Assembly (NCBI GenBank): GCA_964291655.2
Contig: OZ219801.1
Location: 64,001 to 128,000, forward strand
Direction of reading: 5' to 3'
Origin: Chloroflexota bacterium
Lineage (GTDB): Bacteria; Chloroflexota; UBA11872; VXOZ01
DNA: 64,000 bases
In this document: positions 47,371-62,885 of the stretch, piece by piece
Numbering within the stretch: position 1 is the first letter of the stretch
How the letters are laid out: each line of letters starts with the position of its first letter
Translations under genes and position numbers: made by a program
The notes under the pieces: model-generated
Seen by the model: only the letters and a program-made list of their open reading frames with translations
Database searches by the model: none
Told to the model about the DNA's origin: nothing

Positions 47371-47399
47371 CTCCGGTAGCGCAGGTTTGCAACCTGCGC
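47371..47399. repeat. GTAG-type REP element
   Basis: CTCCGGTAGCGCAGGTTTGCAACCTGCGC, between convergent genes. Confidence 0.8.
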
Positions 47400-59782: not shown

Positions 59783-60928
59783 GTGATAAGCGAGGATCCT
59801 AGACTAACCGGAGCCGACGTAGACCCGCTGCGGCAGCAACTCTTTGAGGCGTATGACAACTGGCTCATGCTCCAATGCCGCGTGCGCTATAACGCCCGCG
59901 GCGAAAACTGGCAGCGGGACTACTCAAATCAGGATGCGTATCTGAAGTCAATTGAACCAAATCGCGAGCGCCTGCTCGCCATGATCGGCGGCTGGCCGTG
60001 GGAGCGCGGCCCGTTGGAGCCGCGCATCGAGGAAATCGCCGCTACTGACACCTACACGGCTTCCCGCGTCTGGTATACGTCATTCGACGACGTGCGCGTG
60101 GACGCTATTCTCATTCGCCCTCACGGCCCGGGGCCGTTTCCGGCGGTGCTCGCCCAGCACGGCGTCAATCACACGCCGGAGCAGATTTGCGGGTTTTGCG
60201 ACCCAGAGCACAGCGCCGCGTACCACGAGATCGGCGTGCGCCTCGTCAAGCATGGCTATGTCGTCATCGCGCCGCGCATGATTGGCGGTTACGGCGAAGA
60301 CCGCTTCAACGTGCCCAACATTCCCTCCCTACGTCAGCAGGAGCAGGGCCGCGCCCAGAACCAGATTCACCGCAAGGCAATTCTCATCGGCCAGAGCATA
60401 CAGGCGTTGGAGTATTTTACGCTTTCCCGCGCCGTCGACTACCTGGAATCGTTGCCGGAAGTGGCCAACGACCGCATCGGCCTCTACGGCCTTTCGCGCG
60501 GCGGCCGTGCCGCCCTCTGGCTGGGGGCTCTGGAGCAACGCTTGCAGGCGGTGGTCTCATCGGCCTGGTTCAACGAGCGCTTCAGCAAGATGCTGCAGCC
60601 GGAGATAATCAAAGTCGGTTCCTTCATTGAGACTTCATCCGAATTTCAATTCATCCCAGGTCTTTTTCATGAGTTTGGCGATGCCGACATAGCCTCTCTC
60701 ATCTGCCCGCGCGCCTTCTTCGTGGAGGACGGCAAGCACGACCGCGCCGTGTGGTGGCCGAAAGCAATCCAAGAGTTTGAGTTGGTTGAAGCCAATTACG
60801 AAAACCTTGGCATTCCTGAAAAGTGCGGCATTCGCATTCACGAACAAGGTCATGAGACGGAACCGGAAGCGGAGATCACGGATATCCAAGCCGTGGCGTT
60901 TCTCGACCGCTGGCTGAAGGCTGTGTGA
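59783..60928 (+). CDS. Alpha/beta hydrolase (dienelactone hydrolase / AXE-like)
   Basis: PAVLAQHG, RAVDYL, GLSRGG nucleophile, GKHD, GHE. Confidence 0.85.
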   Translation: MISEDPRLTGADVDPLRQQLFEAYDNWLMLQCRVRYNARGENWQRDYSNQDAYLKSIEPNRERLLAMIGGWPWERGPLEPRIEEIAATDTYTASRVWYTSFDDVRVDAILIRPHGPGPFPAVLAQHGVNHTPEQICGFCDPEHSAAYHEIGVRLVKHGYVVIAPRMIGGYGEDRFNVPNIPSLRQQEQGRAQNQIHRKAILIGQSIQALEYFTLSRAVDYLESLPEVANDRIGLYGLSRGGRAALWLGALEQRLQAVVSSAWFNERFSKMLQPEIIKVGSFIETSSEFQFIPGLFHEFGDADIASLICPRAFFVEDGKHDRAVWWPKAIQEFELVEANYENLGIPEKCGIRIHEQGHETEPEAEITDIQAVAFLDRWLKAV

Positions 60929-61006
60929 GGAGTTTCCGCCTTGCGCGCCGCACTGAAATGCAATCGAAAGCAATGTCCTTTCAATCTTGAATTGACAGCA
61001 GTGCTG

Positions 61007-61033
61007 CCGTTCGCCCTGAGCTTGTCGAAGGGC
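61007..61033. repeat. REP-like palindrome (CCGTTCG..CTGAGCTTGTCGAAG family)
   Basis: CCGTTCGCCCTGAGCTTGTCGAAGGGC. Confidence 0.75.
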
Positions 61034-61148
61034 ATTCCGACAATTTTGTGCCTTGGAAGTGGCGTCTTTAGTAATGCTGCGTAGCCACTTCACCACAAAC
61101 GGTATCCCGGTAGGCCCTGTAGTCGCCTAGACTTGAGGATGAGTCACG

Positions 61149-61514
61149 ATGCCAAGACTCTTAAATTTCTTCATCGATCCCTACGTCGTGCTCCGACGGG
61201 ATGAAACCACGGGCGACGACTCCGGTAGCGCAGGTTTGCAGCCTGCGCTAACACGCGAGCTTGAAGTCCATGTCGCCGGTCTCGCCTGCACGAGCATATG
61301 AGCGCGGCGTACACAGGAGGGCCTTGCGTCACTCCCGGGCGTCCAAGAGACTAGTTTCAACCCTAAAACCGATACCTTTTCTGTCCGCTATCACGGGGAC
61401 GAGCTAGATCTCGCTAGTGTCAACGCAGCGGTGCGCGGGAAGGTGGTCGCCAAGCCGGTGCGCAGGCTGCTTGCTTGGATCAGTCGCCCGTTTCGCCACG
61501 CCCCGAAAGCATGA
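61149..61514 (+). CDS. Putative selenocysteine-containing heavy-metal-associated (HMA) domain protein (in-frame TGA at codon 51)
   Basis: Not in the ORF track. GAGGA RBS at 61135-61139, ATG at 61149. Translation ...LEVHVAGLACTSI(TGA)ARRTQEGLASLPGVQETSFNPKTDTFSVRYHGDELDLASVNAAV... follows the HMA pattern on both sides of the TGA. SECIS-like hairpin at 61306-61330. Confidence 0.72.
61306..61330 (+). promoter_or_regulatory. Candidate bacterial SECIS element
   Basis: Hand-folded: GGCGUA/UGCGUC stem, CAC bulge, AGG/CCU stem and an AGGG loop that starts 16 nt after the UGA. Confidence 0.5.
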
Positions 61515-61596
61515 ACCCAGTGGGCGCGCCGGACTCCAACCACCTAGTTGAAGACCGGAATAAGAGGGTGGAAGGGAACTCCCGCTCTGCCGTCCA

Positions 61597-61622
61597 CACT
61601 TCAACAAGCTCAGTGCGAACGG
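61597..61622. repeat. REP-like palindrome, inverted relative to 61007-61033
   Basis: The reverse complement reads CCGTTCGCACTGAGCTTGTTGAAGTG. Confidence 0.7.
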
Positions 61623-61808
61623 CAGAGCTTACCGCGAACTACTTGTGCTTGGCGATGCGAATTTTCTTCGACACGCCTCAACTCAACGCATGCAACTTTG
61701 CATCGCTCTCGCTTGTATCTCCTCCCAAGAGCGTCTAAAGTGAGGCTAATGTTTGCGTAGTCACTCAAGACCTAGCGCACACTTGACGCGAACTCCCTTT
61801 GACCGTTA

Positions 61809-62885
61809 GTGCCAAGAGGACGTACATTCGTGCCTGCACCCTCATCTGACACAGCGCCCAATACCGCAGGGGATCACAAAGAACCCCCAATTCTGACCAC
61901 CGTGGTGGGGAGTTATCCGGTGCCCGGCTGGCTGCTCGCCATGCCCAGCAGATCGGCGCTGCGCGACGCCATGCTCGCAGTCTTCAAGACCCAGGAACTT
62001 GCCGGCATCGACGTGGTGACGGACGGCGAACTCTCCCGCTTCGACGTCAACCATCCGGAAACCCAGGGTATGATCGAATACTTTATTTCCCCCTTGTCGG
62101 GCGTAGACGTGGAGTTTAGTCGCGCTGATGTAGACGCTTTTCGTCAGCAGGCGGGCATGCAGTTTCGCAGACAGCCGGCGGGGGTCGTACGAGAGGCAAT
62201 TGGCGCGGGCACGCTTGACCTGCCGTCCGCCGCAAATGGTGTGACCTTCACCACGAGGCCCTACAAGTTCACGGTCACCAGCCCATACATGTTGGCGAAA
62301 TCTCTGCTTGACGTTCACTATCGCGACATTCGCCAACTGGCATTCGCGATTGCCGATGTCTTTCGGGAACAGGTCGCGGACCTCGATGCCGCCGTCCTGC
62401 AAATTGACGAGGCAAATCTGGTTGGCTCTCCGCAGGATGGCGAGTGGGCGGCCGACGTGCTCAACCACGTTTTTGCGGGGTTCAAAGGACAAAAAGGAGT
62501 GCATCTCTGCTTTGGCAACTACGGCGGCCAGACCGTTCAACAGGGCCTCTTCAAAGACCTGTTGCCCTTCTTCAACCGGCTCGCGTGCGACCATCTAATC
62601 TTGGAATTCGCCCGGCCCGGAGATTCCGAACTGCCGGTCTTCAAGGACTTGCAGCCCGCTGTGAGCCTGGGTATCGGCGTTATTGACATCAAGGACAACG
62701 CCGTGGAGACTCCGGACCTCATCGCCCGCCGCATCGAGCGCGCTGTCACCGTATTAGGCGCGGACCGCATCAAGTGGGTGCACCCGGACTGCGGCTTCTG
62801 GATGCTCTCGCGCATCGTGGCCGATCAGAAGATGGCTGCGCTGGTCGAGGGCCGTGACCTCTATCTCGGAAAGACACGCACCTAA
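61809..62885 (+). CDS. Single-domain cobalamin-independent methionine synthase II family protein
   Basis: TTVVGSYP, DGE, QIDEA, Zn ligands HLC, E and PDCG. The start is uncertain. Confidence 0.85.
   Translation: MPRGRTFVPAPSSDTAPNTAGDHKEPPILTTVVGSYPVPGWLLAMPSRSALRDAMLAVFKTQELAGIDVVTDGELSRFDVNHPETQGMIEYFISPLSGVDVEFSRADVDAFRQQAGMQFRRQPAGVVREAIGAGTLDLPSAANGVTFTTRPYKFTVTSPYMLAKSLLDVHYRDIRQLAFAIADVFREQVADLDAAVLQIDEANLVGSPQDGEWAADVLNHVFAGFKGQKGVHLCFGNYGGQTVQQGLFKDLLPFFNRLACDHLILEFARPGDSELPVFKDLQPAVSLGIGVIDIKDNAVETPDLIARRIERAVTVLGADRIKWVHPDCGFWMLSRIVADQKMAALVEGRDLYLGKTRT

Follow-up and report, generated by a model that had tools for sequence, protein, structure and literature searches.

A candidate selenoprotein gene of the HMA fold, interrupted by an in-frame TGA, in a Chloroflexota genome

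Introduction

Can a small reading frame that is interrupted by a TGA at its codon 51 be a working gene? This question is raised by positions 61149 to 61514 of the 64,000-nt window studied here, which is part of contig OZ219801.1 of a Chloroflexota bacterium. Coordinates are positions in this window unless another contig is named, and "the genus" refers to the window's own genus, represented by 17 genomes including its own. A reading made from the letters alone (hereafter, the sequence-only reading) had proposed that the TGA encodes selenocysteine (Sec, U) in a small metal-binding protein of the heavy-metal-associated (HMA) type, and that a hairpin resembling a bacterial selenocysteine insertion sequence (SECIS) follows it. 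The proposal gained support from the Sec machinery of the genome, from an alignment column in which Sec and Cys alternate, and from constraint on the RNA, Sec insertion being a conclusion drawn from sequence comparison. With a probability of roughly 80%, we consider the locus to be a real, unannotated selenoprotein gene, which encodes an HMA-fold protein of the soft-metal-binding type with Sec replacing a key Cys.

The reading frame and its in-frame TGA

The features that define the gene are as follows; A1 and A2 are two protein alignments of the family, A2 being the deeper one, and the second genus belongs to the same class of Chloroflexota (9 genomes).

61135..61139, plus strand: Shine-Dalgarno-like GAGGA, 9 nt upstream of ATG 61149, read directly from the sequence
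61149..61514, plus strand: full coding sequence of the candidate selenoprotein, 121 residues and a terminal TGA (61512-61514), with Sec at codon 51
61287..61289, plus strand: Cys47 codon (TGC), putative first ligand of a C-x3-U site, invariant in alignments A1 and A2 and aligned with the first Cys of GMTCxxC in the ATP7B HMA domains
61299..61301, plus strand: in-frame TGA, putative Sec51; 10 TGA and 7 TGC in the genus, 9/9 TGA in the second genus

No start earlier than ATG 61149 is possible, given the in-frame TGA at 61140-61142, between the GAGGA and this ATG. The MPRLL start was conserved in 17/17 orthologues of the genus. A frame with a good ribosome-binding site, as claimed beforehand, is indeed present. 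Around the TGA, the frame reads V-H-V-A-G-L-A-C-T-S-I-TGA-A-R-R-T-Q-E-G-L-A-S-L-P-G-V, and 70 sense codons follow TGA 61299, with the C-terminal end KPVRRLLAWISRPFRHAPKA; the sequence agrees here with the sequence-only reading, which had reported the TGA and the 70 further open codons. The C-terminal KPVRKLLDWISRPFR was conserved in orthologues on the far side of the TGA. Public gene calls break the Sec forms up: N-terminal pieces end in ...ACTSI (P0020, P0033), and the C-terminal pieces are 70 aa long (P0013-P0019). When the protein sequence was read by eye, with no predictor run, no signal-peptide-like or membrane-spanning stretch was noticed.

Conservation of the TGA column and selection past it

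Orthologues were searched for in all six frames, reading through stops. They were found in 17/17 genomes of the genus and in 9/9 genomes of the second genus. At the column of the TGA, the genus contained 10 TGA and 7 TGC (Cys) codons, and the second genus TGA in all nine genomes (8 distinct sequences examined). Moreover, a search of 5.8 billion proteins retrieved 11 full-length Cys forms, and in alignment A2 Cys occupied this column in 29 rows, besides the window's copy and a second-genus copy, both of which have TGA in the DNA. Homologues with either Cys or a conserved TGA, which the sequence-only reading had named as the thing to look for, therefore exist in both kinds; the situation it feared, in which the relatives all carry TGC or TGT, was not encountered, since the two codons are mixed within the genus and TGA runs throughout the second.

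The frame past the TGA is under purifying selection, and hence translated. Relative to the window's copy, the ratio of nonsynonymous to synonymous substitution rates (dN/dS) over the 64 codons after the TGA was 0.13-0.20 in 8/9 other Sec forms; the remaining one, the near-identical L028, gave 0.40 from just 9 differences. Before the TGA, dN/dS ranged from 0.12 to 0.30. Pooled over all 45 pairs, the corresponding ratio of proportions (pN/pS) was 0.28 after the TGA versus 0.32 before it. In this genome, the earliest in-frame ATG, GTG or TTG past the TGA is codon 95, so that residues 52-94 are obtainable by read-through only.

A pseudogene, a split gene and a sequencing error were rejected on the basis of the orthologues with their conserved TGA column, the dN/dS values past the TGA, the lack of a restart before codon 95 and the contigs of four public runs. 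A genetic code in which TGA is always sense was also excluded: TGA is an ordinary stop in this genome, where it closes 315 of the 1048 open frames that span 400 codons or more, as it does the present gene.

We found no point in favour of an error for TGC introduced during sequencing or assembly, which would be an extremely improbable explanation. Ten genomes of the genus, assembled independently, carry the TGA, and contigs of 4 public runs (4 studies) showed no alternative letter at 61299-61301; two of these contigs represent diverged strains and one may come from the source sample. In addition, the Sec and Cys forms of the genus differ at the two preceding codons. The codon directly before the UGA was ATA in 10/10 Sec forms and ATC in 7/7 Cys forms, and the one before that encoded Ser (AGC/AGT) in all Sec forms and Gly or Arg (GGC/GGA/CGT) in the Cys forms. 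The Ser-Ile(ATA) pair of the Sec forms (61293-61298) may reflect an effect of codon context on Sec decoding, or a co-adapted residue of the site.

Selenocysteine machinery of the genome

All four components whose presence the sequence-only reading had proposed to check were found in this genome. The tRNA-Sec scored 67.1 bits (cut-off 47) and has the anticodon tca according to ARAGORN; selA (562 bits), selB (357 bits) and selD (383 bits) all lay above their curated cut-offs. The machinery appears to be in use, because two other genes also carry an in-frame TGA. One is selD itself (C2:2457313-2458242), with one TGA at the classic ...SCAG-TGA-AGK site. The other is an FdhA homologue (C1:50245-52107, about 12 kb before the window start), with one TGA at the classic ...CNRT-TGA-HAP site and a score of 640.9 bits, slightly below the 666-bit cut-off. 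Together with the HMA gene, FdhA and selD bring the number of candidate selenoprotein genes in the genome to at least three.

Within the genus, selA was detected in 17/17 genomes and tRNA-Sec in 16/17, the missing case being a 69%-complete assembly; the genomes that carry Cys forms are thus Sec-competent too. For the second genus, 5 of the nine genomes were examined, and selB and tRNA-Sec were detected in all 5.

RNA signal 3' of the UGA

As described in the accessible part of PMC13188914, the bacterial SECIS model of bSECISearch has a loop of 3-9 nt with a G at position 1 or 2, an upper stem of 4 bp or more, a distance of 16-37 nt between UGA and loop, and an energy of at most -7.5 kcal/mol. 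Three overlapping hairpins could be drawn past the TGA of the window's copy; energies are those of this copy, and pair counts are given for the Sec and Cys forms.

61306..61343, plus strand: SECIS-like region, one G+C-rich stretch with three overlapping hairpin models, based on pairing counts and the synonymous-site contrast
61306-61330, model D: hairpin of the sequence-only reading, loop AGGG at 61318-61321; pairs in Sec forms 86/90, in Cys forms 36/63; -8.3 kcal/mol
61309-61332, model A: loop AGGGC; pairs in Sec forms 81/90, in Cys forms 38/63; -4.3 kcal/mol
61306-61343, model B: loop CUUGC; pairs in Sec forms 108/110, in Cys forms 60/77; -9.8 kcal/mol

Model D consists of a GGCGUA/UGCGUC stem, a 3-nt CAC bulge, an AGG/CCU stem and the AGGG loop, which begins 16 nt past the UGA. 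The potential to form a hairpin was kept in 10/10 Sec forms and lost in 6/7 Cys forms, L033 being the Cys form that still has it. Synonymous differences among Sec forms amounted to 0.21 at codons +1 to +11 versus 0.47 at codons +12 to +65, and among Cys forms to 0.42 versus 0.39, a contrast that is no clean statistical test, as the Sec forms are closely related and their sequences are not independent. Even so, these contrasts fit what is expected of a SECIS under selection. A conserved hairpin was what the sequence-only reading had asked of the relatives, and constraint at the RNA level was indeed seen past the TGA, in Sec forms only. The comparisons indicate that an RNA element is present 3' of the UGA in this genome, with a pairing that is ambiguous between models A, B and D; it is the comparison with relatives, not the folding energy, that gives this feature its more-than-chance status.

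The second genus has a clearer hairpin, GGCGGCCCU-GGC-AGGGCUGCC, with a 9-bp stem and a GGC loop 23 nt past the UGA. All 72 of its 72 cells were paired, energies ranged from -12.1 to -17.2 kcal/mol, and every one of the four features of the bSECISearch model was present; the only variation was the change of some G-C pairs to G-U. Between the two genera, the hairpins lie 7 nt apart in position and cannot be aligned. Both resemble the bacterial SECIS consensus in being placed shortly past the UGA and in having a small, G-containing loop, at 16 nt in this genus and 23 nt in the second. In the FdhA gene of the same genome, a 6-bp stem with the loop GGUCU 18 nt from the UGA was recognized by eye, its geometry being nearest to models A and D; the minimum-energy fold was a different structure. 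A search of 61100-61560 against Rfam at permissive thresholds returned only a chance-level mcrA match (9.5 bits, E 9.5), and the whole window gave zero matches at gathering scores.

Protein fold and candidate metal site

The structural elements of the predicted protein are as follows (pLDDT, predicted local distance difference test).

61182..61211, plus strand: predicted extra N-terminal beta strand, residues 12-21, after the motif MPxLxNxxxxP (AlphaFold2 on A2)
61266..61439, plus strand: HMA core, beta1, alpha1, beta2, beta3 and alpha2 (Pfam PF00403 and structural match)
61452..61496, plus strand: predicted C-terminal helix, residues 102-116, KPVRRLLAWISRPFR (AlphaFold2, pLDDT about 67 here; Arg105 is family-invariant)

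With U read as C, the Pfam HMA profile (PF00403) matched residues 40-97 with 29.7 bits (cut-off 24.8), over profile positions 2-58 of 62. The last strand of the usual beta-alpha-beta-beta-alpha-beta HMA fold was left unmatched by the profile. An earlier AlphaFold2 model, built from alignment A1, had a pLDDT of 68.3, and a Foldseek search of the PDB with this weaker model gave no match at E <=0.001. The model built from A2 reached a mean pLDDT of 83.5 and a predicted template modelling score (pTM) of 0.70, residues 11-20 forming a block at 93. It comprises a helix (4-8), two strands (12-21 and 35-43), a helix (48-60), two strands (65-71 and 76-82) and two helices (88-99 and 102-116). The predicted N-terminal strand 12-21 may fill the place of the last HMA strand. 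In one Sec form (L038, genome G016), the gene starts with GTG and a TAG occurs 5 codons early, which gives 116 residues with a shortened C-terminal tail.

The best structural match of residues 35-99 was 4a48_A (VIA-align Z 8.3; root mean square deviation 1.5 A over 60 residues). CopA, Ccc2a, ATP7B, CsoZ, CopZ, NmerA, GolB and MerP followed at Z 6.2-8.0. When solved structures were searched with the family profile (HMMER), ATP7B, CopA and CopZ were found, and GLvCesiC was aligned with GMTCq-sC with a one-residue gap; this alignment makes U51 the second ligand and places one additional residue between it and the first. The sequence-only reading had placed the TGA exactly at the second HMA Cys: U51 does align there, but the C-T-S-I-U site has an x3 spacing, one residue longer than the canonical C-x2-C.

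The protein shares with CopZ, MerP and the N-terminal domains of Cu(I) P-type ATPases the beta-alpha-beta-beta-alpha core and the G-[ML]-x-C context. The ligand positions agree as well: the loop following beta1 holds the first ligand, a Cys, and the first turn of alpha1 holds the second. Unlike CopZ and MerP, it has Sec in place of the second Cys, the x3 spacing, an extra N-terminal segment, a basic C-terminal helix and an unmatched last strand. None of the NCBIfam CopZ/MerP models was reached, the best score being 21 bits (CopZ_Eh, cut-off 95), and the MerTP fusion model scored 18 bits (cut-off 180). A search of the ESM Atlas with the natural Cys orthologue P0002 returned HMA and hypothetical clusters only, with scores <=0.86.

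Relation to known Sec-containing HMA-type proteins

The sequence-only reading had stated that some Sec-containing HMA proteins were reported, and this was borne out by two NCBIfam models and one survey. NF041115 is named 'UxxU metal-binding (seleno)protein' and NF045683 'MerT/CopZ fusion-like heavy metal transport selenoprotein'; a Sec-containing MerP and a UxxC cation ATPase are described from ocean metagenomes in the accessible part of PMC2398784. The present protein is like these in being HMA-type or related and in having Sec for a ligand Cys. They differ from it in having U-x2-U or U-x2-C sites, with Sec at the first or at both ligands, and other architectures, whereas Sec is second here and the spacing is x3. 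Against NF041115, the protein, whose motif is CxxxU, scored 16.3 bits (cut-off 95 bits), and NF045683 gave no match.

No description of the family was found in the literature searched, in the parts that were accessible (including PMC13188914, PMC12013277, PMC13326102, PMC2398784 and bioRxiv 10.1101/2022.07.06.499078), a scope that left aside supplementary tables and BSepDB, which could list it. A text search of the family table in the accessible part of a 2026 review found no row for PF00403, HMA or CxxxU. Sec in HMA-type proteins is thus already known, and the present family would add a variant site spacing and architecture to this kind.

Mechanism and weighing of the evidence

Bacterial Sec decoding requires SelB, GTP and Sec-tRNA(Sec) acting on a hairpin directly 3' of the UGA. 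By analogy, we infer Sec insertion at codon 51: SelB with Sec-tRNA(Sec) would be recruited by the hairpin that starts a few nucleotides past UGA 61299, and the ribosome would insert Sec rather than stop, which would yield a cytoplasmic protein of 121 residues. The site would then be C-x3-U, with Cys47 located in the loop and Sec51 in the initial turn of alpha1; its counterpart in CopZ, MerP and copper ATPases is C-x2-C. Likeness to HMA proteins suggests a metal-binding function, in which a soft metal ion such as Cu(I) or Hg(II) would be bound or passed on by the thiolate-selenolate pair.

Several points weigh against a Sec-containing, metal-binding protein. The C-x3-U spacing is not that of a canonical metal site, and the gene neighbourhood gave no metal-handling lead in the three contexts examined (the genus, the second genus and a distant member). 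At the RNA level, the 62-nt segment 61299-61360 folded at -15.0 kcal/mol, compared with a mean of -18.4 kcal/mol for its shuffles (z = +1.21), and 181 of the 200 shuffles were at least as stable. Since the segment folds no better than shuffles, the hairpin by itself is no evidence. The hairpin drawn by the sequence-only reading is present, with 9/9 standard pairs and -8.3 kcal/mol, but taken alone it is no better than chance. Moreover, no pairing in the window's copy combines all four features of the bSECISearch model: model A is too weak (-4.3 kcal/mol), because of an A.C mismatch; the upper stem of model D has 3 bp; and in model B a G is missing from the first two loop positions. The three models fit about equally. 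All pair changes were one-sided, with zero double compensatory changes, and the relatedness of the Sec forms mentioned above limits the synonymous contrast.

The shuffling result and the splitting of the locus in two by gene callers would agree with a UGA that acts as a stop or is decoded by an ordinary tRNA, the locus then being a nonsense pseudogene or encoding a 50-residue peptide only. We consider this very unlikely, because the TGA occupies one column in 10 genomes of the genus and in 9/9 of the second genus and alternates with Cys codons only, because the 64 codons past it are under strong purifying selection with no start before codon 95, and because only the TGA forms show a deficit of synonymous change 3' of this codon.

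In an alternative reading, with the same gene and fold, Cys47 and Sec51 could form a redox centre cycling via a selenenylsulfide, in a small oxidoreductase or sensor. According to the accessible parts of reviews, most bacterial selenoproteins use Sec in redox motifs (CxxU, UxxC); the C-x3-U spacing is not that of the metal-binding C-x2-C, and no metal transporter or regulator adjoins the gene in the three contexts. Set against this, the fold and both ligand positions match HMA metal sites, the canonical C-x2-C is found in 6/31 family members of A2, and NF041115 and NF045683, other HMA-type proteins with Sec, are classed as metal-binding. A redox role is a serious alternative, though the less likely one, and soft-metal binding by a Sec-containing HMA protein is the reading that we prefer.

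If a selenolate ligand in an HMA site is confirmed, it would be useful for studies of metal selectivity. In terms of annotation, the locus would add a clear Sec/Cys family to the bacterial selenoproteome, as public calls halve the gene and no NCBIfam model names the family. A single genus with Sec and Cys forms and the full Sec machinery also offers a compact natural series, which bears on the benefit of Sec at a metal or redox site and on the rate at which a SECIS decays once the UGA is lost. The interest is limited, since published work already describes Sec in HMA-type metal sites and new bacterial selenoprotein families are regularly reported.

Family, distribution and history

A profile search of 1.84 billion representative proteins gave 482 matches at E <=0.001, including 36 at E <=1e-10. 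Among the best matches were many proteins of 99-148 aa that aligned from residue 1 to about residue 110. The features shared by the family were MPxLxNxxxxP, GLxC-x3-C, LPGV and an RRLL helix; P11, G44, C47, C51, F77 and R105 were family-invariant, and M1 was nearly invariant in A2. The C-x2-C spacing occurred in 6/31 rows of A2. A Pfam HMA match was obtained for 25/31 family members (E <=0.01), and NCBIfam cut-offs were reached by 0/10 members tested. Source names of the relatives were absent or 'hypothetical protein', apart from one JGI label, archaeosine tRNA-guanine transglycosylase, which we take to be an error. Based on the models, these proteins would form an unnamed family of about 100-120 aa, in which an N-terminal strand is added and a C-terminal helix replaces the usual last HMA strand.

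The distribution of the family was narrow. Among 98 genomes of the class, it was found in two genera only (17/17 and 9/9 genomes), and a 401-genome sample of the phylum yielded the 11 sampled genomes of the genus (the window's own included) and one distant member with C-x2-C. A pattern scan of 185,579 species genomes found 19 loci, all in metagenome-assembled genomes titled Chloroflexota or Chloroflexi. A scan of metagenome contigs gave one weak 15-residue match only.

The protein tree separated the two genera (support 100/100), the interior of the genus being unresolved. The best tree had 3 changes between Sec and Cys (2-4 in bootstraps), of which well-supported branches force 1 only. Sec was probably ancestral, as the outgroup genus is all Sec, and this suggests at least one Sec-to-Cys replacement, and probably several.

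A repeated element in the linker

The linker between the N-terminal strand and the HMA core contains an in-frame repeat.

61226..61250, plus strand: inverted repeat with perfect 9-bp arms around a 7-nt loop, encoding GSAGLQPAL, an in-frame copy of a dispersed hairpin resembling a repetitive extragenic palindrome (REP)

The consensus of this REP-like element is about CCGGTAGCGCAGGTTTGCAACCTGCGTCC, and 56 matches at <=2 mismatches were found genome-wide, on both strands, with a further copy near window position 47379. Contig depth spiked at the element in 4/4 runs. It was absent from the second-genus orthologues, and the coding region of one orthologue (L042) contained 4 tandem copies. Elsewhere in the genome, at C2:473531-473766, the element occurs in four tandem 78-bp units; this array is not a CRISPR, as its intervening parts are alike. 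In genome G012, a partial duplicate of residues 25-50 (L035 1410-1487; 81% identity across 26 residues) is found immediately upstream of the orthologue, and probably arose by a small tandem duplication that took in the REP-like element.

Taken as a whole, the history of the locus could be that of an undescribed family with a variant HMA fold (an N-terminal strand for the last strand, a basic C-terminal helix and a C-x3-U/C site), in which an ancestral Sec was replaced by Cys two to four times within a Sec-competent genus, with decay of the SECIS after each replacement, and in which a REP-like element was taken into the frame of the linker and reached four copies in one species. We regard this combined account as finely balanced.

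Neighbouring genes and other features

Upstream of the gene, genomes of the genus carry genes for a solute-binding protein and an alpha/beta hydrolase, and downstream of it genes for a MetE-like protein and a GFO-family oxidoreductase. These neighbours were conserved within the genus only, and were different in the second genus and in the distant member. No RNA dataset was among the public runs carrying the locus. A scan of 60850-61900 for promoters and terminators found no terminator-like site and a single promoter-like site, at 61799-61828. An inverted repeat was observed at 61584-61628, 70 nt past the stop codon, with 17-nt arms that are 88% complementary and 11 nt between them. It lacks a T-run; in the 294-nt spacer ahead of the MetE-like gene, it could act as a regulatory hairpin or mark the end of the transcript.

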